In this document: positions 9,512 through 47,628 of the stretch, piece after piece
How positions within the stretch are numbered: position 1 is the first letter of the stretch
Layout of the letters: the number at the start of each line of letters is the position of its first letter
Source of the DNA: a bacterium
GTDB taxonomy: Bacteria > Patescibacteriota > Saccharimonadia > CAILAD01 > GCA-016700035
Reading direction: 5' to 3'
Assembly: GCA_020854115.1 (NCBI GenBank)
Contig: JADZGC010000011.1
Span: 5,057 to 69,056 of the forward strand
Length of the DNA: 64,000 nucleotides
Made by a program: the position numbers and the translations under genes
Notes under the pieces: generated by a model
What the model saw: the letters and a program-made list of their open reading frames with translations, nothing else
Database searches by the model: none
What the model was told of the DNA's origin: nothing

Positions 9512-9587
9512 CGCGGGGTGGAGCAGTTGGCAGCTCGTCAGGCTCATAACCTGAAGGTCGCTGGTTCGAGTCCAGCCCCCGCTACCA
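9512..9587 (+). tRNA. initiator tRNA-fMet (anticodon CAT)
   Basis: CGCGGGG 5' end with a C1-A72 mismatch. Three consecutive G-C pairs close the CTCATAA anticodon loop. CCA end. Confidence 0.9.
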
Positions 9588-9739: not shown

Positions 9740-10426
9740 TCAGCACACGCTCACCGCAGGGTCGACGAACGGTGTTCCCACCAGCGATCCGGAGGTCTGC
9801 CCATTGTTGTAAAACGCGTCTGCAGACACGTAGAAGGTGTCGTTCCACGGGCTCGATGCGATTCGATACCACCATGTGTTGCCGTCCTGGACGCGGAACC
9901 CCTCGACCCGACACCTGATCTGCACGGTCGTGTACGCCGGGATGCTGGGCCCCTGTGTCCCGCCGGCGGTGAGATAGTCGGTCCAGGTCGCTGCATCTCC
10001 ACCGGTGGTCTCGGCGAACGTGCCCGGCGGAGACGGTGCGGCACTTGTGGTCGGTGACACCACCGTGGGCGGTGGGTTGGTAGACGCAGGCGGTCCTCCG
10101 GAGTTCGATGTCGTCGGGGATGGTGGCGGTCGCGGTGGGGCGACTGAGGTTGGCTTGGTGGATTGCGTCTCGCCGAGCGAAGTCGACGGCACGGCCTGCG
10201 TCGTTGAGGGACCGGGGGCGCTCGTCGGCCCAGCGACGACTGCTCCCCGAGACGTCGTCGGACGCGAGACCGGAGGTACCGCGCCGGTAGCCCGGTCCCT
10301 CACGTTCTGCTCTCCGCCGTCCGTAAGTACGAACGACAGGCCGGCGACGAGCAGCACGAACGCGACGGCGGCGAACGCAAACGCACCCCTCGGCCTTGAA
10401 TTTGTGACGGCGAACGACTTGAGCAA
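9740..10426 (-). CDS. secreted/membrane-anchored Pro/Thr-rich protein with C-terminal SH3b-like domain (island gene A)
   Basis: N-terminal TM (AFAFAAVAFVLLVAGLSFVL), PT-rich linker, and a C-terminal W/Y-rich domain (TTVQIRCRVEGFRVQDGNTWWYRIASSPWNDTFYVSADAF). GC-rich codons. Confidence 0.65.
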   Translation of the reverse strand: MLKSFAVTNSRPRGAFAFAAVAFVLLVAGLSFVLTDGGEQNVRDRATGAVPPVSRPTTSRGAVVAGPTSAPGPSTTQAVPSTSLGETQSTKPTSVAPPRPPPSPTTSNSGGPPASTNPPPTVVSPTTSAAPSPPGTFAETTGGDAATWTDYLTAGGTQGPSIPAYTTVQIRCRVEGFRVQDGNTWWYRIASSPWNDTFYVSADAFYNNGQTSGSLVGTPFVDPAVSVC

Positions 10427-10457
10427 GCTCTACGCTCCCTTGACACGTTCCGGACGC

Positions 10458-10799
10458 ATGCGCTCGTTCTACTGGAACCCCGACCCAGGGGAACGGGCAC
10501 TGATCGCGAGCGGCCTCTTCCCTTCGCTTCCGGCCGACGATCTAACCGAGCTCACCAAACACTTTTCCGATCAGCCAATCAGCTTCCTAGCCGATATCGC
10601 GAGCCATCACCTGACCCTTGTGCTGGGCGCTGAGATCGACGCCAACGACTTCCCGACGGTCCTTGCGAATGTGCGTCTCGGAGAGTACGACGACTTTGCC
10701 TCGGGATTGTCACTAGAGCAATTGATCTCAATTGGTGATTCGTATCGCAATTCCTACATCTATCAGAGCTACCTTTCCCTGGAGGGATCCGCATCATGA
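10458..10799 (+). CDS. hypothetical protein (island gene B, 113 aa)
   Basis: ATG at 10458 chosen. The 10005 extension overlaps gene A and looks like a high-GC artefact. Its stop overlaps the gene C start (ATGA). Confidence 0.5.
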   Translation: MRSFYWNPDPGERALIASGLFPSLPADDLTELTKHFSDQPISFLADIASHHLTLVLGAEIDANDFPTVLANVRLGEYDDFASGLSLEQLISIGDSYRNSYIYQSYLSLEGSAS

Positions 10800-11353
10800 C
10801 CGCTACCATGACGTACGCCGTCACTGCGTCCGCGACCACGACTCGCCTGCGTGCTATCGAATACCAGATTCGTTACTCGCTCAAGTCGATGGCTCAGATT
10901 GATAGCGACTACCTCGACCGCATAATTAGGGCCATTCGGATGCAGTTCTGTTCCGAAGTTTGGATCTACGCAGTTGATCCATTGAGCGGCGCCTGTGACC
11001 AGGCGGCACGATTGCGACTCGACTGGGAACGACATGAAGCCCTGAACATGGAAACCCCAACCATCGACCTTCGCGAAGCATACTACGGCAAGGAACTCGC
11101 GCCGACGCTTGAGGCGCTGATTGAGAGCTTCCTTGAAGGGCGTCGGCCCAATCATGAGATCGAGGTCCAACTGGGCGACATCATGCCGAAGTTCCGCAGC
11201 AATAAGGAGCTTCTCGATCGCACTCTCAGCGAACTTGGCTTCCGACTCTGTGACGCGCCGCCTTGGGCAGTAGGCGAAGTCGATTCAGAGGACGCCAAAG
11301 TGCTGCGCCTCGAGGAGATGTCTGGAGCACTGTATTGGGTCAAAGCAGGATGA
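10796..11353 (+). CDS. hypothetical protein (island gene C, 185 aa)
   Basis: Translationally coupled to gene B. Balanced amino-acid composition. No recognisable family. Confidence 0.55.
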   Translation: MTATMTYAVTASATTTRLRAIEYQIRYSLKSMAQIDSDYLDRIIRAIRMQFCSEVWIYAVDPLSGACDQAARLRLDWERHEALNMETPTIDLREAYYGKELAPTLEALIESFLEGRRPNHEIEVQLGDIMPKFRSNKELLDRTLSELGFRLCDAPPWAVGEVDSEDAKVLRLEEMSGALYWVKAG

Positions 11354-11549
11354 CGAGCCTGCTCCCGGGTCAAGCCAGCTGTTCGATTGACATTCTCCGC
11401 GGCTGTGGTACACTATAGAACTATGTTTCGAGGGCGGCTGCGGCGGCATTTGTAATGCGGATCTGCCGGAGCCGCGCTCGATCACGAAATCGAGACCGGA
11501 AGCACATCTGTGTGCTTTCGAGTAGTTCCGCGGCAGAAGGTGACCGGCC

Positions 11550-11768
11550 ATGGCAGGCTCGTCGCAAGCCGAGCAGTCTCGACGGGAGGTCGCAGTCCCC
11601 CTTGAGAGAATGCTCCACCGAGTTCGATCCGGAGAATCACCTCAAATGGAGGTTGAGACTCTCACGAGCGAACTGTGGGATTTGGCCCACCGGGCGTTTG
11701 GCATCAGCCAGTCTCCAGTCGACTCGTTTCGGGATCGGCTGGAGGAGATCGACGCACGACAGGCCTAG
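11550..11768 (+). CDS. small hypothetical protein (island gene D, 72 aa)
   Basis: GAAGGTGA RBS before ATG 11550. Acidic helical protein. Followed by a perfect 12-bp hairpin. Possible TTGACA/TACACT promoter at 11387-11414. Confidence 0.45.
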   Translation: MAGSSQAEQSRREVAVPLERMLHRVRSGESPQMEVETLTSELWDLAHRAFGISQSPVDSFRDRLEEIDARQA

Positions 11769-11775
11769 CAGAGGG

Positions 11776-11804
11776 TCCGACGAGTGCATGACGCACTCGT
11801 CGGA
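11776..11804. terminator. perfect 12-bp stem hairpin between convergent island genes D and E
   Basis: TCCGACGAGTGC-ATGAC-GCACTCGTCGGA. No U-tract, as is common for high-GC terminators. Confidence 0.4.
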
Positions 11805-11895
11805 CTCACACTTCCAATTACGGCAGGGCAGACCCTGGGGAGCAGGACGCCGCCAGGCGATCTCGGCGGGGACGGAATCTTGGCGTCAGTCATTT

Positions 11896-12501
11896 TCAGA
11901 TCAGTCCGCGGCGCTCTAGATCGTGCATCTCCCGAAGCAGTGCGACAACAAGCATGATCGCAACTAGCGCGTTGACCTTGGTGTACTGCGTATCGCAGAC
12001 ATGGTGGAGCGATGCGTGGCGGTTGTAGGCATCGGGCACTGCATCCCCGCGATTCGGCCAGAACGTGCCGAGTACCGGAGGAATACAACTCGTGATGAGG
12101 GCCGCCCGGAACATGTCTGAAGCGACTTCGCCAGGGTCCTGCACGAGAGATTCCGCCGCCTCGCGGAGCGTGTCGTATCCCATGTGCGCCTGGAGGATCG
12201 TGGTGACCAGCGCCGCAGCGAGTGCCTGACCCGAGGCGGTGTGGCCGGCTCGAATCGCTCCAGCCGCATCGGACGCGAATGGCACGAGTGGCGAGAAGCC
12301 GCCGGTGACCTCGCCAAGCAACCGATCGCAGGCATCGAGCAAGGGGAGCTCGGCAAGCGCATCGAGCGCCGTATCGCGGCAATCGATGCAGCCATGGTCA
12401 GTCTGCCGGAGTCGCTCCGCCCGGAGGACGGCTGGGACTACCAGGCGCTTGTGAGCGTCAACGGGGTCTCGGTCGGAGATGGTGACTCGTGGGTCAACCA
12501 C
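11896..12501 (-). CDS. hypothetical protein (island gene E; 5' extent uncertain)
   Basis: The minus ORF runs 11896..12816, but its upstream part is antisense to ORF F and Arg/Ala/Val-rich. The protein-like part covers at least 11896-12393. Possible starts are ATG 12183 and GTG 12501. No family recognised. Confidence 0.35.
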   Translation of the reverse strand: MVDPRVTISDRDPVDAHKRLVVPAVLRAERLRQTDHGCIDCRDTALDALAELPLLDACDRLLGEVTGGFSPLVPFASDAAGAIRAGHTASGQALAAALVTTILQAHMGYDTLREAAESLVQDPGEVASDMFRAALITSCIPPVLGTFWPNRGDAVPDAYNRHASLHHVCDTQYTKVNALVAIMLVVALLREMHDLERRGLI

Positions 12502-12756
12502 GCCGAACCGTTCGACGAACACTGCGAAGGCCGCGATGCTCAAGTTGTGTACGCCGTTCCGGCTGCCGACGGCGAACTGGTGGCCCTCGCTTACTACAAG
12601 TGGGGCTACTGGAACGTCAACCTCCGCTGGCGCGAGACGACCGACAGCTCGCCTGTCGCGACTCACGCCTCGGAGGAGTCGGCATCCGCCACCGAGCCTG
12701 TTGACATGGAGGACGCCTTGCAACGCCTCCAGGACAGATTCGGTCCGAACCGGTAA
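12394..12756 (+). CDS. hypothetical protein (island gene F, 120 aa)
   Basis: ATG 12394. Hand count on 12481-12660 gives GC3 about 78%, GC1 about 68%, GC2 about 45%, favouring this frame over the antisense ORF. Acidic C-terminus. The stop coincides with the GC drop. Confidence 0.4.
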   Translation: MVSLPESLRPEDGWDYQALVSVNGVSVGDGDSWVNHAEPFDEHCEGRDAQVVYAVPAADGELVALAYYKWGYWNVNLRWRETTDSSPVATHASEESASATEPVDMEDALQRLQDRFGPNR

Positions 12757-12964
12757 ACGACTATAACTATCCTTGAACCCAACAAGGTAAAAAATCTTGC
12801 AGGTAACTGCAAGCATGAAGCCTCAAGGTTTTGTGAGGGGAAGCTCATCGCGGTAGGCGAGCTAAAGTGTACGTTCCAATGCAAGGTGGAGTATGGCACA
12901 GAACCGTCCGGTTTCTCTCGAACCCGGGTCTGATCTGAAGAGATAAGACGAAGTTGAGAGATAC

Positions 12965-13616: not shown

Positions 13617-13693
13617 GGCTGCGTAGCTCAGTTGGTTAGAGCAATGGACTCATAAGCCAGAGGTCGGTGGTTCAAATCCACCCGCAGCCACCA
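13617..13693 (+). tRNA. tRNA-Met (anticodon CAT), elongator-type
   Basis: GGCTGCG acceptor stem pairs with CGCAGCC. CTCATAA anticodon loop. GGTGG-TTCAAAT-CCACC T-arm. CCA end. Anticodon stem has two non-WC pairs. Confidence 0.8.
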
Positions 13694-34413: not shown

Positions 34414-34941
34414 ATGTACTTTGGATCTCTTACCTTGGATGCAAATTTTTTTGTATTTGCTGTACTTGGCCTGTTTTTGGGCTGTGGGATTTTGTTTGGT
34501 GAAGCGCGTTTGAAACGTGTTGTGACGGGGGCTCTTATTGGGCTGTTTGCTGCTGATCAGCTCGCTGACTTTGTGGCGACACAGCTGAGTAATGCAAAAG
34601 TGGACATAGATGACCAGGCAGTGCTAAAAATCGCGCTGCTGCTTATCGTTGCTATTCCACTATCGCTGGGCAAAGCACCGTCGGTTGGTGGGAGGTTCTC
34701 AATTCGCTCGATAGTGTTAGCGGTGTTTGCGGCGATGACCGTCATCGCATTTGTGAGTAATTTCTTGTCCGATACCTTGCTTGGAGAATTAGAGACAGAA
34801 TATAACCTCATCGCGCTTGCAACCGACAACCGTTCGTGGTGGTTGGCTGGCTTGTTGCTCTGGCTCGTCATCTTGCATGTCTGGAAACCAAAGTCGAAGG
34901 ATGACGATGATGGCAAGGGTAAGCGAGGCAAGAAGAAATAA
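34414..34941 (+). CDS. hypothetical polytopic membrane protein with Lys/Asp-rich C-terminus
   Basis: TATAAT at 34402-34407 then ATG 34414. Several TM helices. The 34147 extension overlaps a minus-strand ORF. Confidence 0.55.
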   Translation: MYFGSLTLDANFFVFAVLGLFLGCGILFGEARLKRVVTGALIGLFAADQLADFVATQLSNAKVDIDDQAVLKIALLLIVAIPLSLGKAPSVGGRFSIRSIVLAVFAAMTVIAFVSNFLSDTLLGELETEYNLIALATDNRSWWLAGLLLWLVILHVWKPKSKDDDDGKGKRGKKK

Positions 34942-35024: not shown

Positions 35025-35456
35025 ATGCAAATCCAGCCACATCCATTGCCTTTGATCGGCCGCAAGACGAAAGTCGAGCTGGTCGATCTTGGTGTAAAAA
35101 ACGTCGCAGCGAAGGTTGACACCGGCGCGTATCACAACGCAATTCACTGCTCCGACGTTGTCTTGCACAAAGAAGACGGTAAGAAATTCTTGACCTTCAA
35201 GGTACTCGATAATGACCATCCGAGCTTTAAGAAACGTACGATCACCGTACACCGCTTCGGTAAGCGTCGTGTCAAGAATTCATTTGGCGTGTACCAGATG
35301 CGCTACCTCGTCCGTCTGGCAATTCGCGTCGAAGGCTCCACGAAGCTGTATAAAGTCCATTTTACATTGGCTGATCGTAGCCGTATGCGAACCCCTGTTC
35401 TCTTGGGGCGAAAGTTCTTGAAGCACCGCTTCCTGGTTGACGTGCGTCATTCATGA
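35025..35456 (+). CDS. RimK-associated retropepsin-like aspartic protease (DUF785 family)
   Basis: About 140-aa protein with a VDTGA-like motif (AKVDTGAYH). Sits immediately upstream of rimK, a conserved pairing. Confidence 0.7.
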   Translation: MQIQPHPLPLIGRKTKVELVDLGVKNVAAKVDTGAYHNAIHCSDVVLHKEDGKKFLTFKVLDNDHPSFKKRTITVHRFGKRRVKNSFGVYQMRYLVRLAIRVEGSTKLYKVHFTLADRSRMRTPVLLGRKFLKHRFLVDVRHS

Positions 35457-35472
35457 CCTATACAGTAAAGAT

Positions 35473-36378
35473 ATGAAAATCGCTATCTTATCCAAGGGTA
35501 GGAATAACTACTCGACCGCACGACTCGCTGACGCCGCTCGCAAGGCCGGTCACACGCCACTGATTGTTGACTATACGAAGGCCTACATGGGCATCGAAAG
35601 CATGGCGCCAACTGTACATATCGAAGGGCACGCCATCGATGATGTGCGGGCGGTTATCCCTCGTATAGCTGCTAGTTATACCTCATACGGGACGGCTGTT
35701 GTGAGGCAGTTTGAAATGATGCGCGCCTATGCGTCGGTCAGCTCGCTGTCGCTCGTGCGTTCGCGCGATAAGTTGCGCTCCATGCAGCTCTTGGCGCGTG
35801 CCGGTGTCGGGATTCCGAAGACGGTCTTCGCCTATGCAAGTTCAGATGCGCAGGAACTCATCGATCTCGTCGGCGGTGCACCGGTTGTAGTCAAGCTCCT
35901 CGAGAGCACACAGGGTAAGGGTGTGGTGCTGGCAGAGACTAAGAAAGCTGCTAAGTCGGTGGTTGAGGCGTTCAATTCGATTAGTGCCAGCTTCATCATC
36001 CAGGAATTCATCGAAGAAGCTGATGGCTCTGATATTCGTGTCATTGTAGTGGGGGATCAGATCGTTGGCGCAATGATGCGCAAGGGTGCAGAGGGCGAAT
36101 TCCGCAGCAATACGCATCGTGGAGGGGAGCCAATCGCAGTTGAACTCACGAAGAAAGAGCAGAATATCGCGCTTAAATCGGCTCGTACACTCGGCATGTC
36201 GATCGCCGGTGTGGACATTATTCGCTCGAAGCGCGGACCGTTGGTGCTCGAGGTGAATAGCTCGCCATCATTGCGTGGTACGGAGCTCGTGACGAAGCAA
36301 GACATTGCCGGGGCTATGATCGACTACGTCGCGAAGCGAGCAATGGGTAAGCGCAAGAAGGACAAGATCGGCGCTTAG
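35473..36378 (+). CDS. rimK: RimK-family ATP-grasp alpha-L-glutamate ligase
   Basis: ATP-grasp fold and RimK-like motifs (MKIAILS..., SMQLLARAGVGIPKT, VVVKLLESTQGKGVVL, GEFRSNTHRGG). ATG 35473 preferred. Confidence 0.85.
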   Translation: MKIAILSKGRNNYSTARLADAARKAGHTPLIVDYTKAYMGIESMAPTVHIEGHAIDDVRAVIPRIAASYTSYGTAVVRQFEMMRAYASVSSLSLVRSRDKLRSMQLLARAGVGIPKTVFAYASSDAQELIDLVGGAPVVVKLLESTQGKGVVLAETKKAAKSVVEAFNSISASFIIQEFIEEADGSDIRVIVVGDQIVGAMMRKGAEGEFRSNTHRGGEPIAVELTKKEQNIALKSARTLGMSIAGVDIIRSKRGPLVLEVNSSPSLRGTELVTKQDIAGAMIDYVAKRAMGKRKKDKIGA

Positions 36379-36488
36379 TCTCTCGATAGAAATCTAGTAA
36401 GCATAAGAAAATGAGCATTGACAAAGTGCTCATTTTTTGGTAATATAAACAGGTTCTATTCGTACCCCTACAGAAAGAGATCAGGCAC

Positions 36489-37799
36489 ATGCCTACGACC
36501 AAGACCGAACCCGTCTGGAAAGACGCGGAATACGCGACGATCGCTAAACGGACGAATCGCAGCTTGATTGCTGCCTTCAGGCCGAGTAAAGAGAGTGAAG
36601 CTGAACAGCGCGGCTTGTTCCTGGCTGGTGAACGGCCAGTACCGAATTTTTCGTGTCCCAAGCTGGAATCAACTGCCTATAAGCCTACGACCGATGAACT
36701 TGAGTCGTTATTGGCCGACTGGAAGGACGATTCGCCGCTAGGACGTATCTACCAGCGATTCTTGGGCGAGAACTTTCTCGTCAATGTCATCGCTGATGCG
36801 GCCAAGAAGGGCGACATGCGACTTTTTCGTCGAACCAATCAGATGCTGGGCTACGTGCCGGATGGGAAGCTATTCCGCTCGATCGTGGCTGACATTCGTC
36901 GACGTGCTGAAGCCACTCTCGATGACACAGCAATTCGTCCCCTCGCAAATGCGCTCCTCGATACTCTGCCGAACGCAAGTGAAGCAGACATCTTGTTGCC
37001 ATCGGAGGAGCACGTGCGTGCTGCTTTCCCTGCTATGCTGGCATTGTGTGAGTCCCTCCATCTCCCTACGGACGTCGACTTCGATGCGGTGTGGGATGCA
37101 TATGAGCTAGCTCGGGTACTGCAGGCATCACTCGATACAGCAGGCGCCACTGGGTGGTCGGTCATAGTGACCGATGAGCAGCAACGCATCTCGGTTTCGC
37201 GTACTGACAAGCTAGCGAAGATCCCCGTCACGCGAAAGCTGCATGGTCGAGATGCTTATGCTGTCATCGCGCACGAGCGTTTGCATATCGAGCGCGGCCT
37301 GCGTGGTGCTGCGAGCGGTTACTACTTCCTGCAGTCAGGAACAGCTGGTTACATCGAAGGCGAGGAAGGGACAACTCTCGCTCTAGAGCAGGCTCTCAAG
37401 GGACGAGCCAACCGCCATGCGCGTGAGGACTACTACCTCGCGATCGCGGCTGCCAATGGATTCGTCACGAATGGCTTCATGACTTTCGAGCAGGTCCATC
37501 GGCTGATGCGCACGTATTACGAGTTCGTTGCCGAGGAGCCGGATCGTGAGCGAGAGTCTACGGAGAGTCCCGAAGAAATGGCTTGGATTCAGACTCTACG
37601 TACGTTCCGTGGTACGGATTGTAAGGGCAATGGCGCCTACTACGGCAAAGATATCGTCTATGCCAAGGGTAATCTTGGTATCTGGCAGCTGCTCATCGAG
37701 GATCCTTCAGCGGCGCAGACCTTCATGGTCGGGAAGTTCAACCCAATGAATCCGGACGATGTTCGGGATCTGACCGAGCTCGGACTTATCGCGACCTAG
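36489..37799 (+). CDS. DUF1704-like zincin (HExxH) protein, putative carboxypeptidase
   Basis: HERLH motif. Family resemblance to the tyrosine/phenylalanine carboxypeptidase-type DUF1704 proteins that neighbour RimK-like ligases. Slightly elevated GC by eye. Confidence 0.6.
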   Translation: MPTTKTEPVWKDAEYATIAKRTNRSLIAAFRPSKESEAEQRGLFLAGERPVPNFSCPKLESTAYKPTTDELESLLADWKDDSPLGRIYQRFLGENFLVNVIADAAKKGDMRLFRRTNQMLGYVPDGKLFRSIVADIRRRAEATLDDTAIRPLANALLDTLPNASEADILLPSEEHVRAAFPAMLALCESLHLPTDVDFDAVWDAYELARVLQASLDTAGATGWSVIVTDEQQRISVSRTDKLAKIPVTRKLHGRDAYAVIAHERLHIERGLRGAASGYYFLQSGTAGYIEGEEGTTLALEQALKGRANRHAREDYYLAIAAANGFVTNGFMTFEQVHRLMRTYYEFVAEEPDRERESTESPEEMAWIQTLRTFRGTDCKGNGAYYGKDIVYAKGNLGIWQLLIEDPSAAQTFMVGKFNPMNPDDVRDLTELGLIAT

Positions 37800-37847
37800 T
37801 GACGTATGCCGCATTCTCACTTCTTGTGGGAGTGCGGCAGTTTTTAT

Positions 37848-38540
37848 TTATCCACGCTTTTGTGAGTAAAAATTACGAAAGATCGTGTACTTTACCCACG
37901 GTCGATACAGACGCTTGGCGCTGTATGGGTGGACGAAGAATCGGTCGGGCGTTTCTTGTTTGACACGTCGCCAAATGGTGCGCAGGGTTTGGCGCGGAGT
38001 CTTCTCGGGATGGAATTGCATACCGAAGACTGGCTTGCTCTCATGCTCGTAGGCCTCAATCGTGCAGCGCTTGCTACTACCGATGACCCTGAAGCCGTGC
38101 GGCAGGCGCTTGATGTGGCCCGAGTGATTTGCGAATGATACGAAGCGCGAAGGCAGCCCCTCGAAGAGGCGACTTGGTCCGTTGCGCATGATTTCGATCC
38201 AGCCGATTTCTTGTTGATCATGGCGCTCGAGGTCGCTTAAGCCAAGGAGGCTCGTGATGATCAGCTCGTGTCCCAGGCAGATACCAAGCATCGGAATGTT
38301 TTCTTTGTAGGCTTTGCGAATGAGTTTCTGAATGCGCTTGTAGACTTTCAAGTCATCCATCGATGAGACGATATTCCCTCCAGTGAGGATGATGTGCGTG
38401 AAGCTATCGAGTTCGGTAGGCAGTTCTTCTTCGGTAGGGCGGACAACCGTTGCGCGAGTCAGCTTGCGAGGGCGAAATGCCATACAGTGCTTACAAGGGC
38501 GGACGTGGTTGTTATCGATAATGAGGACATGTCGGCGCAT
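37848..38540 (-). CDS. class I glutamine amidotransferase-like protein (peptidase C26/gamma-glutamyl hydrolase-like)
   Basis: Nucleophile elbow GICLGHE, HSGH and FGMQFHPE motifs. ATG at 38540 (MRRHVLIIDNNH) preferred. Confidence 0.75.
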   Translation of the reverse strand: MRRHVLIIDNNHVRPCKHCMAFRPRKLTRATVVRPTEEELPTELDSFTHIILTGGNIVSSMDDLKVYKRIQKLIRKAYKENIPMLGICLGHELIITSLLGLSDLERHDQQEIGWIEIMRNGPSRLFEGLPSRFVSFANHSGHIKRLPHGFRVIGSSKRCTIEAYEHESKPVFGMQFHPEKTPRQTLRTIWRRVKQETPDRFFVHPYSAKRLYRPWVKYTIFRNFYSQKRG

Positions 38541-45371: not shown

Positions 45372-45935
45372 ATGTTAGCTTTGCTACAGGGTGAGGTGGT
45401 TTTGCGAGAGGGCGACGAGATCGTGCTCATGGTTGGTGGTGTGGGCTATGAAGTGAGCGTACCGATGCGGGTCTTGAGTGATCTTGTTGAGGGTGAGGTG
45501 GTGACGCTTTATATTGCTGAGAACATCCGAGAGGATGCATATGAGCTCTTTGGGTATACGACAGCAGAAGATAAGCGTTTGCATAAAAAACTCGTGGGGG
45601 TACAGGGCGTGGGCGCTAAACTTGCGCACGCTATACTTTCACATTATGACGCTGAAACTTTGCGCGAGCTGATTGAAGGCGAGGATCTGGTGCGGCTTGG
45701 GATGGTGAGCGGGGTTGGGAAGAAAACTGCTCAACGCATTCTCCTCGACCTTAGGGGTAAGCTCGTCACTACAACGACGAGTACATCGCGTGCTGAAGCG
45801 AACGATCCAGCACTCTTGGCACTCTTGCAGCTCGGATTCTTGCGCGAGCAGGCTGAGCAGGCACTGCTGGAAGTTGATAGTGAATTAGAGACAGGCGAGA
45901 GGATACGACAGGCCTTGAAAGGAATGGGGCGATGA
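45372..45935 (+). CDS. ruvA: Holliday junction branch migration protein RuvA
   Basis: OB-fold N-terminus ([10 protein letters not shown]), two HhH motifs ([17 protein letters not shown]), C-terminal RuvB-interacting domain. ATG 45372 preferred. Confidence 0.9.
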
Positions 45936-47005
45936 TCGAACGGCTGCACGAAAAAGACGAGGCCGTACTGCGTGACGTTCGACCTGATGTTGGTGATGTC
46001 GAAGAAAAACGTCTTGAGGAGACATTGAGACCTCGGAGCTTCGATCAATATGTTGGTCAGCGACAAGCTATCGATGCGCTCAAGGTAGCGATTGCGGCAG
46101 CAAAGCAACGAGGCGAGGCGCTCGATCACGTACTGTTGTATGGGCCCCCAGGACTCGGGAAGACCACCCTGGCGCACATTGTGGCAAATGAAATGGGTGC
46201 ACAGCTCAAAGTTACCTCAGGGCCAGCCATCGAGCGTGCTGGAGATCTGGCAAGCCTGCTGACGAATCTAAATGCCGGTGACATATTGTTTATTGACGAA
46301 ATTCACCGGCTTGGTCGGACGGTCGAAGAGATTCTGTATCCAGCAATGGAAGACTTCGCGATCGATATTATGCTTGGCAAAGGTCCGGCTGCTCAATCGT
46401 TGCGCCTTGACCTGCCCCGCATCACGATTATTGGTGCGACTACACGATATGGGACTTTGTCGAGCCCATTGCGTGATCGATTTGGCATTGTGCACCGGCT
46501 GGAATTCTATACACCGGTCGAAGTCGCTCAGATCCTGCGGCGCTCGTCCGATCTCTTACGTGTTCAGATACAAGACGATGCACTGGCGGTACTGGCAGAA
46601 CGTTCACGATTAACTCCGCGTATAGCGAACCGACTCATCAAGCGGGTGCGGGATTACGCAGAAGTGCACAATCGCGGTGTGGTGGATAGTGCGATGCTTG
46701 AAGCAGCCTTAAGCCTATTGGAGATCGATGAGCTCGGCCTTGATAGCTCTGACCGACGACTTTTGATCACATTGATCGAATACTATGATGGTGGACCAGC
46801 GGGCGTAGCAGCTCTGGCTGCAGCCCTGTCTGAGGAGCAGCAGACTATCGAAGATGTCATAGAACCATATCTCATTCAGATCGGGCTCTTGAAGCGGACG
46901 ACGCGGGGGAGAATGGCGAGCGAACGCGCTTGGCAGCATGTTGGCAAGACTCCAAAGTCGCCTCCAAAATCTTCTTCACAGGCCTCGCTCAATCTGGAAG
47001 AATAG
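45932..47005 (+). CDS. ruvB: Holliday junction branch migration ATPase RuvB
   Basis: AAA+ Walker [12 protein letters not shown], Walker [11 protein letters not shown], winged-helix C-terminus. ATGA overlap with ruvA. Confidence 0.95.
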
Positions 47006-47019
47006 AGTACACTAGTGCC

Positions 47020-47628
47020 ATGTCACACATGTTTCCAGGTCAAGATGATAGCGAAATAGTCCAGCGAGTAGTCTATAAGCATATTTTTTCGGTGCTCCCG
47101 TTTTTATTGGTAGCATTGTTATTGTTTTTTGTAGGTTTGTTCCTGGTGTATGCTGGCGCTGCCGATCTTATTAAGTTTCCTGTCACAGTGCTAAAAGGTC
47201 TGCCAGATAGCAGCTTTCAACTGCCATATGCTGCGATAGGGATGATATTTGTCGCCATGGCGGTGTTTTTGTGGTTGGCGAGTATATACGTCTGGCGCCA
47301 AAACCAAATGATATTGACCGATGAGAATGTTGTCGATGTTGATCAGCGCGGCATATTTCAAAAACATATCTCTACGCTACGTCTGAGCCGAGTCCAAGAT
47401 ATATCTGTGATTGTAAAGGGCCCCATGCAAACCATTTTTCGCTATGGCACTATACATATCCAGACTGCAGGAGCGGTGGAGAATTTTGAATTCGATTATG
47501 TACCTGATCCTTATGAGGTGAAGGCGTATATGGTGAATCTATTTGAGAAATTCGTAGAGAAGAAAAGGCATGAAGGGGACGGTACGCGCGATCGGACGCT
47601 TTCGGCACACGGTTCAGAAGAAGAGTAG
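47020..47628 (+). CDS. membrane protein with bacterial PH (bPH_2/DUF304-like) domain
   Basis: Two TM helices then a PH-like region (ILTDENVVDVDQRGIFQKHISTLRLSRVQDISV). Confidence 0.55.
   Translation: MSHMFPGQDDSEIVQRVVYKHIFSVLPFLLVALLLFFVGLFLVYAGAADLIKFPVTVLKGLPDSSFQLPYAAIGMIFVAMAVFLWLASIYVWRQNQMILTDENVVDVDQRGIFQKHISTLRLSRVQDISVIVKGPMQTIFRYGTIHIQTAGAVENFEFDYVPDPYEVKAYMVNLFEKFVEKKRHEGDGTRDRTLSAHGSEEE

Follow-up and report, generated by a model that had tools for sequence, protein, structure and literature searches.

In the RimABK/RimBK system of Pseudomonas, which glutamylates RpsF (PMC4741518, PMC7343187, PMC11957791), the ligase RimK joins alpha-linked glutamates to ribosomal protein S6 at its C-terminus; RimK also polymerizes free glutamate into poly-alpha-glutamate (PMC11957791; PMC12239564). 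RimB, a characterized retropepsin endopeptidase, takes glutamates off RpsF and stimulates RimK (PMC11957791). On the tails of eukaryotic tubulin, TTL/TTLL ligases are paired with the MATCAP/TMCP1-2 enzymes (KIAA0895L/KIAA0895), which remove C-terminal tyrosine or glutamate and shorten polyglutamate chains (PMC10499314). The locus described here, positions 35025-38540 of a 64,000-nucleotide stretch of contig JADZGC010000011.1 (hereafter the window), brings together a rimB-like retropepsin gene, a rimK gene, a gene for a MATCAP-family peptidase (formerly DUF1704) and an amidotransferase-like gene. Its host is a Candidatus Saccharibacteria bacterium with a small, reduced genome, a member of the candidate phyla radiation (CPR), the small-genome bacterial lineage that includes Saccharibacteria. 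On balance, and with confidence not far above even, we read the locus as an alpha-glutamate tailing system of the RimBK type to which a carboxypeptidase of the MATCAP family has been added.

The resemblance to the Pseudomonas system lies in the position of the rimB-like gene directly before rimK, in a RimK 52% identical to the Pseudomonas protein, and in a RimB-like protein that carries the DTG motif and, as judged by its lack of a signal peptide, would be cytoplasmic. The differences are several. The locus has no gene for RimA (EAL), its RimB-like protein falls well short of the cutoff for the RimB equivalog (67 versus 200 bits), a MATCAP-family gene follows rimK with an amidotransferase-like gene adjacent, and the host is a Saccharibacterium, not a proteobacterium. 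The RloABC system of Pseudomonas aeruginosa (PMC12239564) likewise combines a retropepsin-like protease with an ATP-grasp protein; however, RloA proteases possess a signal peptide and are secreted, and the operon includes a 7TM inactive transglutaminase, and the window locus has neither feature.

With the tubulin-tail cycle the locus shares the PF08014 domain, the EEG motif and the FRGTD / KD.xY.G blocks, as well as the pairing of an ATP-grasp amino-acid ligase with a carboxypeptidase, here a predicted one, for acidic, Glu-rich C-terminal tails. Unlike human MATCAP, the window protein has HExxH in place of HExxxH and an extra N-terminal helical region, and the two are of low sequence similarity (profile match at E 0.004); the locus is also without tubulin, and the pairing is one of adjacent genes. 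A further point of comparison is the QEGLA-motif family (TIGR02421), whose genes neighbor those of the RimK-related ligase TIGR02291 in Proteobacteria. The window protein falls in the same superfamily as the QEGLA proteins and is no member of that equivalog (28.9 bits, with the cutoff at 338.65). The ligase beside it is a genuine RimK and not of the TIGR02291 type (23 bits).

The RimB-RimK system is thus already known, and all four genes have been annotated automatically. Apparently new are a third component from the MATCAP family, the HExxH form of its metal motif, the hypervariable slot that it occupies and the occurrence of the system in Saccharibacteria. A full-text search of the literature open to searching returned nothing combining DUF1704 with RimK, Saccharibacteria with RimK, or MATCAP with a bacterial ATP-grasp protein, and pairing KIAA0895 with RimK retrieved only three irrelevant papers on human genes, none in a bacterial context. 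We found no characterized bacterial member of the DUF1704/MATCAP family, of which about 1,100 clusters at 50% identity were detected.

Products of the four genes

The locus consists of four genuine genes, each a long open reading frame (ORF) with a strong profile match. They lie where the initial annotation had placed them, the end coordinate falling exactly on the ATG of the amidotransferase-like gene (38540). The genes and the signals between them are as follows.

35025-35456, plus strand: RimB-like retropepsin-type aspartic endopeptidase, 143 aa, pI 10.7, DTG at residues 32-34, PF05618
35473-36378, plus strand: RimK alpha-L-glutamate ligase, 301 aa, ATP-grasp and pre-ATP-grasp domains, PF08443 and PF18030
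36406-36446, plus strand: hairpin and promoter-like element in the spacer between rimK and the MATCAP-like gene, from promoter scan, RNA fold and conservation
36489-37799, plus strand: MATCAP/DUF1704-family gluzincin-type metallopeptidase, 436 aa, pI 5.3, HERLH at residues 262-266, PF08014
37807-37849, no strand assigned: terminator hairpin with T-run, between the convergent MATCAP-like and amidotransferase-like genes
37848-38540, minus strand: stand-alone class-I glutamine-amidotransferase-like hydrolase, 230 aa, pI 10.2, PF00117, a tentative member of the system

Pfam and NCBIfam searches upheld the four family assignments that had been made from the letters alone, and the same names appear in the NCBI annotation (MCC7543435-38: ATP-dependent zinc protease; S6--L-glutamate ligase; DUF1704 domain protein; gamma-glutamyl-GABA hydrolase family protein). 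One statement has aged. RimK with a retropepsin, and RimK-like proteins with DUF1704, had been described as associations of unknown physiology; RimB is now the characterized RpsF-trimming, RimK-stimulating endopeptidase (PMC11957791), and DUF1704 has become MATCAP/TMCP, a family with known carboxypeptidase and deglutamylase activity (PMC10499314).

By sequence, the product of the second gene is a bona fide RimK alpha-L-glutamate ligase. It exceeds the curated cutoffs of the 'S6--L-glutamate ligase' equivalog (NF007764, 349.2 versus 331 bits) and of TIGR00768 (236 versus 143), and matches PF08443 at E 2e-62. Its alignment with the structurally and biochemically characterized RimK of Pseudomonas (7qyr; 52% identity, E 9e-97) runs for 290 aa without a gap, and E. 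coli RimK (4iwx) is matched at E 4e-92. We place the start at ATG 35473 and discard the TTG at 35437 proposed by the ORF lister, because the alignment with solved RimK structures begins at residue 1 and relatives are called at 301 aa. The rimB-like gene stops 16 nt ahead of this ATG. Its product matches PF05618 (E 8e-20, 71.6 bits against a cutoff of 27) with the catalytic motif VDTGA at residues 31-35, in agreement with the retropepsin-like protease first proposed, and its N-terminus, MQIQPHPLPLIGRKTK, shows no hydrophobic signal peptide on inspection. The nearest solved structures are 9g59/9g58, of the RloABC type, and 2pma is also among its PDB relatives. Given its score on the NCBIfam RimB equivalog (NF052261), quoted above, we class it as RimB-like and not as a RimB equivalog.

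The 436-aa protein had been described as an HExxH protein resembling DUF1704, and this holds: PF08014 is matched at 34.8 bits, above the cutoff of 27, over residues 359-435 only. Membership is supported transitively, because family relatives found at E 1e-56 score 71-109 bits on the same profile; an exhaustive search with the family profile gathered 1101 clusters in all (E <= 1e-3; 50% identity clusters). When the sequence profile is compared with the PDB, human MATCAP (7z5g) ranks first, though only at E 0.004. Residues H262, E263, H266, R269, E293, G294, R371, F373, G375, D388, Y391 and G394 are each conserved in at least 90% of a 150-sequence alignment, R371/F373/G375 and D388/Y391/G394 representing the C-terminal FRGTD / KD.xY.G blocks. 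E292 reaches at least 90% in a 25-sequence alignment and is invariant in the window clade. The third zinc ligand is likely to be supplied by E292/E293 of G291-E292-E293-G294, in the manner of the EEG ligand that accompanies HExxxH in human TMCP1/MATCAP (PMC10499314). We therefore place the protein, as a divergent representative, in the MATCAP/DUF1704 superfamily and, by analogy with its eukaryotic relatives, predict it to be a C-terminal exo-trimmer. It also shares an HExxH motif and a glutamate ligand with the M32 (Taq-type) carboxypeptidases and the M2/ACE gluzincins, themselves carboxypeptidases; at a template-modeling (TM) score of ~0.3 and 11-15% identity, this likeness is at clan level only.

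The product of the fourth gene matches PF00117 at E 1e-26 (93.8 versus 22.8 bits), and this match overlaps and outscores one to Peptidase_C26 (PF07722; E 4e-12, 46.8 versus 20.5 bits). The triad C88/H177/E179 is intact within GICLGHE (residues 86-92) and HPE (177-179), and E92 stands in for the conserved Gln of the G-x-C-x-G-x-Q nucleophile elbow. Domain and motif are thus those first proposed; however, the gene lies on the minus strand and its best matches are to glutaminases of the GMP-synthase-subunit-A type, not to C26. The nearest solved relatives are archaeal GMP synthase subunits A with GICLGHQ. The Glu-for-Gln variant is genuine but not unique, being common among small CPR amidotransferase-like proteins: the elbow position is occupied by Q in 86, E in 31 and H in 2 of 120 homologues, and among the closest homologues listed (P0154-P0163, 41-97% identity) all have Glu except P0162, which has His. 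The protein shares the class-I amidotransferase fold and the Cys-His-Glu triad with subunit A of two-subunit GMP synthases and with Peptidase C26 (PuuD-like), and is set apart from both by its Glu, by its unusual basicity and by the lack of an adjacent synthase partner in the window and in the related loci L001, L003 and L018. It reaches no equivalog cutoff in NCBIfam. Two minor features may be recorded: a conserved N-terminal P-C-K-x-C motif (residues 15-19), present also in the L018 paralogues P0157 and P0158, and a shorter call, of 211 aa, in the NCBI annotation.

Three consecutive plus-strand genes had been taken as a set. Their order and strand are correct; a single shared transcript is unlikely. 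The 110-nt spacer between rimK and the MATCAP-like gene contains an A/U-rich hairpin of 14 bp with a U-run (36406-36438; RNA fold z -2.35) and, overlapping it, a sigma-70-like promoter with 10 of 12 matches, made of TTGACA (36418-36423), a 17-nt spacer with TG, and TAATAT (36441-36446). Hairpin and hexamers are kept in L001, L003 and L009, and the -35/-10 hexamers also in L010 and L011. As the third gene would have its own promoter, the plus-strand trio probably does not share one transcript, and the MATCAP-like gene is probably expressed separately from rimBK. A riboswitch or known RNA in this conserved spacer was considered and rejected, since an Rfam search of the spacer matched no family. 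Downstream, a strong terminator hairpin of 14 bp, 8 of them G-C, with a T-run (37807-37839) separates the MATCAP-like gene from the amidotransferase-like gene, which is convergent with the other three.

Recurrence and divergence of the gene association

The four genes are not separated in all related genomes: close relatives, at 63-75% MATCAP identity, keep all of them. Because the whole dnaK-dnaJ...comEC region is syntenic in these relatives, this conservation provides no independent evidence. At greater distance, the order RimB-like, RimK, MATCAP-like is retained down to 36-39% MATCAP identity (L009, L010, L011). Two further loci, L018 and L019, from another Saccharibacterium, share the flanks of the window, with an upstream membrane protein 70% identical and a downstream amidotransferase 79% identical, and hold a different module between them (L018:5689-10769, L019:2520-7600). 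This alternative module, which is without a rimB-like gene, starts with a RimK (47% identical), a same-strand amidotransferase-like gene (GICLGAE) and a 479-aa MATCAP-like protein (26% identical, HELGH), and goes on to a convergent amidotransferase, a gene of the GGACT family, another convergent amidotransferase and, after these, an Rce1-like protease.

Unrelated, canonical members of the family keep comparable company. A MATCAP-like gene adjoins an L-amino-acid ligase (LAL)-type ATP-grasp gene in L013 and a RimB-like retropepsin gene in L022. In L024 (5001-9691), whose members score 62-102 bits on TIGR02421, two MATCAP-like paralogues of 453 and 458 aa flank a weakly RimK-family-like ATP-grasp gene and a LytR_cpsA_psr gene, an arrangement that hints at possible cell-envelope substrates for part of the family. 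The MATCAP-like lineage of L016 has no ligase or other relevant partner nearby. In all, a RimK, another ATP-grasp or a RimB-type partner accompanies the MATCAP-like gene in five of the six independent lineages inspected. Scans with clade-specific patterns yielded one locus each in genome contigs and in metagenome contigs; plasmid and viral sequence collections gave nothing. Two apparent variants were set aside. In L011 (3216-4526) the first 4 nt of the rimB-like gene are shared with a Mur-ligase gene; its candidacy as a FolC/CapB-type gamma-glutamyl ligase was rejected, as NCBIfam assigns it to the MurF-like type (190 bits), and it is probably a cell-wall neighbor. The apparent lack of the amidotransferase gene in L004 is a gene-calling artefact, the DNA being present.

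One might suppose from the separate transcription signals and the convergent orientation that the genes are mere neighbors: an ordinary S6-modifying RimB-RimK pair, a DUF1704 peptidase with an unrelated task such as peptide scavenging or the processing of cell-wall peptides, and a glutaminase subunit of the GMP-synthase type. The synteny of the dnaK-dnaJ...comEC region, the affinity of the amidotransferase to GMP synthase subunit A, the presence of its 42%-identical homologue in an unrelated gene context, the L016 lineage without a nearby ligase, and the MurF-like and LytR genes that adjoin the family elsewhere are all in keeping with this. The association in five of six independent lineages with non-orthologous partners, however, speaks against chance adjacency, as does the L018 amidotransferase paralogue, which shares the strand of rimK and of the MATCAP-like gene and sits between the two. 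The conserved Gln-to-Glu change argues against a standard glutaminase subunit. We consider this explanation very unlikely.

In the tailing system that we favor, the amidotransferase would be a tentative member. The link is drawn because the gene persists beside the MATCAP-like gene and because three paralogues and the GGACT gene surround RimK-MATCAP in L018. Its inclusion in a self-contained system, as first suggested, gains from these paralogues and loses from its separate transcription and from the frequency of the E variant (31/120).

The four genes evolve at very different rates. Nonsynonymous divergence (dN) was compared for the window versus L001 and L003:

rimB: ~0.01
rimK: ~0.02
dnaK: 0.03 (L003 only)
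dnaJ: 0.03-0.05
amidotransferase: 0.04-0.12
MATCAP-like: 0.19-0.34, with a ratio to synonymous divergence (dN/dS) of ~0.12-0.13

By this measure the MATCAP-like gene evolves 10-30x faster than rimB/rimK. The RimB-like and RimK proteins are 97-99% identical to those of L001/L003 (RimB-like 99%), compared with 92-93% for DnaJ, 61% for ComEC and 66% for the methyltransferase. Recent horizontal transfer was rejected as the cause: nucleotide identity of rimB/rimK, at 84-86%, is close to the dnaK value and synonymous sites are saturated, and the protein conservation thus reflects purifying selection. A dN below that of dnaK implies that their function matters in genomes as reduced as these. For a modification system regarded as 'accessory', constraint of this strength is unusual in a reduced genome.

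Divergence of the third gene has sharp borders. When window 36520-37811 is compared with L009:630-1908, nucleotide identity is 0.79-0.87 across rimK and the spacer, drops to 0.44-0.67 (mostly <0.6) in the MATCAP-like ORF, and returns to 0.79 from 37812; the MATCAP-like proteins are 39% identical and the flanking RimK proteins 96%. The pattern resembles a replacement of alleles, or a diversification, limited to this gene. In two family members, moreover, the active site is gone: neither His, nor the catalytic Glu, nor EEG is left in P0015 (L017:298-1587) and P0112 (VRL-RLTVER ... AGPA), which are probable pseudo-enzymes. The P0015 gene still follows rimK, and the C-terminus of that RimK is 79% identical to the window RimK.

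These findings raise the possibility that RimK has in the MATCAP-like protein chiefly a partner that is non-catalytic or determines specificity, comparable to the regulators RimA and RimB: a fast-evolving, swappable adaptor for which catalysis is secondary. Persistence of the catalytically dead P0015 and P0112 after rimK (L017), hypervariability of this ORF alone between conserved flanks with a dN 10-30x that of rimB/rimK, and its separate conserved promoter all lean in this direction. Against it stand the retention of H262, E263, H266 and E293 at 90% or more in the window clade and across the 150 sequences, with E292 at the same level in the smaller alignment and invariant in the window clade, and a dN/dS that indicates purifying selection on a working protein. 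We hold a primarily non-catalytic role to be improbable.

Proposed glutamate tailing and its alternatives

The three-enzyme glutamate-tail reading that we prefer is suggested by what the MATCAP/TMCP enzymes do in eukaryotes, where they take off C-terminal Tyr/Glu and trim polyglutamate chains. One could envision the following cycle. RimK would use ATP to extend an acidic C-terminus, by analogy that of ribosomal protein S6, with alpha-linked glutamates, or alternatively make free poly-alpha-glutamate. The basic RimB-like retropepsin would bind RimK as a dimer and cut inside the glutamate tail, and the MATCAP-like zinc enzyme would trim C-terminal glutamates singly, in the way known for its eukaryotic relatives on tubulin tails. 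The length of the tail would then be set by one writer and two erasers with differing cutting modes, endo and exo, and the exo-trimmer, with its own promoter, might be regulated separately. The amidotransferase-like hydrolase probably serves the same glutamate economy, perhaps supplying RimK by glutaminase activity or perhaps hydrolyzing a glutamyl amide; this is the least secure step. By analogy with the characterized systems, the target is probably ribosomal protein S6. The Glu-Glu ends of two proteins encoded in the window, RuvB (45932-47005, C-terminus ...LNLEE) and a bPH_2-domain membrane protein (47020-47628, C-terminus ...GSEEE), resemble S6 ends extended by E. coli RimK, which may be an incidental likeness. 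A system that adds and removes oligo-glutamate had been proposed for this locus at the outset; the proposal is strengthened by the gene order kept at 36% MATCAP identity, by the L018/L019 module and by the association in unrelated lineages.

Several observations weigh against the tailing reading. No rpsF or other obvious substrate gene was found within the 64-kb window. The metal motif of the MATCAP-like protein, HERLH, is one residue shorter than HExxxH, the form carried by 140 of the 153 representatives of the family; this deletion has also arisen on separate occasions in P0033, P0050, P0062 and L018. In a Foldseek search of the PDB with the AlphaFold2 (AF2) model of the protein (pLDDT 96.5), MATCAP (7z5g/7z5h) was absent from the 50 best matches, and these were weak, to M32 carboxypeptidases and ACE-type gluzincins at TM ~0.3 (best 5e3x, E 2.4e-3, prob 0.99). 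In the P0015 and P0112 lineages, whatever role has been kept next to RimK could not be catalysis. Co-transcription is unsupported, the MATCAP-like gene having its own promoter and an upstream hairpin and the amidotransferase gene being convergent, and the role of the amidotransferase is the weakest link of the scheme. The GGACT and C26-like neighbors hint at gamma-glutamyl chemistry, and we know of no such chemistry for RimK. Lastly, the lineage sample amounts to six contexts, mostly CPR-like contigs, a small number to which no statistic is attached.

Some of the same neighbors fit a different product. The module might make and recycle free poly-alpha-glutamate or short Glu peptides, as a glutamate or charge reserve or as an osmolyte, with no protein being modified. 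RimK would polymerize glutamate, RimB would stimulate it and cut the polymer, the MATCAP-like enzyme would return glutamate, and the amidotransferase-like protein would convert imported Gln to Glu. Synthesis of poly-alpha-glutamate from free glutamate by RimK, stimulated by RimB, is documented (PMC11957791; PMC12239564). Three of the four proteins are strongly basic (pI 9.8-10.7), which would suit a polyanionic product, and a glutaminase-type neighbor together with the GGACT gene of L018 is in line with small-molecule glutamate metabolism. This scenario is weakened, however, by the lack of any evident transporter or storage function, by the rimB/rimK dN below that of dnaK, which suggests a conserved macromolecular contact such as the ribosome, and by the fact that MATCAP relatives of known function act on protein tails. 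We judge it unlikely, though the most serious rival to protein tailing.

If the tailing reading is correct, the bacterial DUF1704/MATCAP family would acquire a concrete function, and the RimK ribosome-glutamylation switch a second, mechanistically different eraser. A family that trims tubulin tails would be found beside a bacterial glutamate ligase, a finding relevant to how the tubulin code arose, and constraint on RimB/RimK above that on DnaK would imply that glutamate tailing is central to Saccharibacterial physiology. It is tempting to speculate further, in a proposal that we regard as doubtful when taken whole, that bacterial MATCAP/DUF1704 proteins are the missing exo-deglutamylases of RimK-type tailing, and that the ligase-carboxypeptidase pairing of the eukaryotic tubulin code was inherited from a prokaryotic rheostat acting on C-terminal tails. 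The Saccharibacterial trimmer would occupy a bounded, swappable slot, some occupants of which are dead; its fast evolution would suggest specificity-setting or conflict-driven diversification, and the Glu-variant amidotransferase-like hydrolases and GGACT would represent further erasers.

Base composition and flanking sequence

The DUF1704 gene had been noted, by eye, as GC-elevated relative to its neighbors. Its GC content is slightly raised (0.558 versus a gene mean of 0.506 +/- 0.037), but the rise is not specific to this gene (rimK, 0.550), and third-position GC (GC3) is 0.60-0.64 in all four genes versus 0.526 +/- 0.061. A foreign origin of the DUF1704 gene was rejected on these grounds, the excess being only ~1.4 standard deviations over the mean and rimK and the amidotransferase gene being likewise raised.

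Upstream of the rim genes and on the same strand lies a gene for a small membrane protein (34447-34941) with a Lys/Asp-rich tail and no Pfam match. It is present in every Saccharibacterial version of the locus, at 48-82% identity across the window, L001, L003, L011 and L018; in L011 the MurF-like gene sits between it and the rim genes. Further away, five ORFs at 9740-12816 have no Pfam match, and three of them, at 10796-12816, reach a GC of 0.57-0.62 versus 0.50 for the window. They are part of a stretch between two of the window's three tRNA-Met genes (9512-9587 and 13617-13693), and the 9740-12816 stretch may be foreign or lineage-specific DNA.

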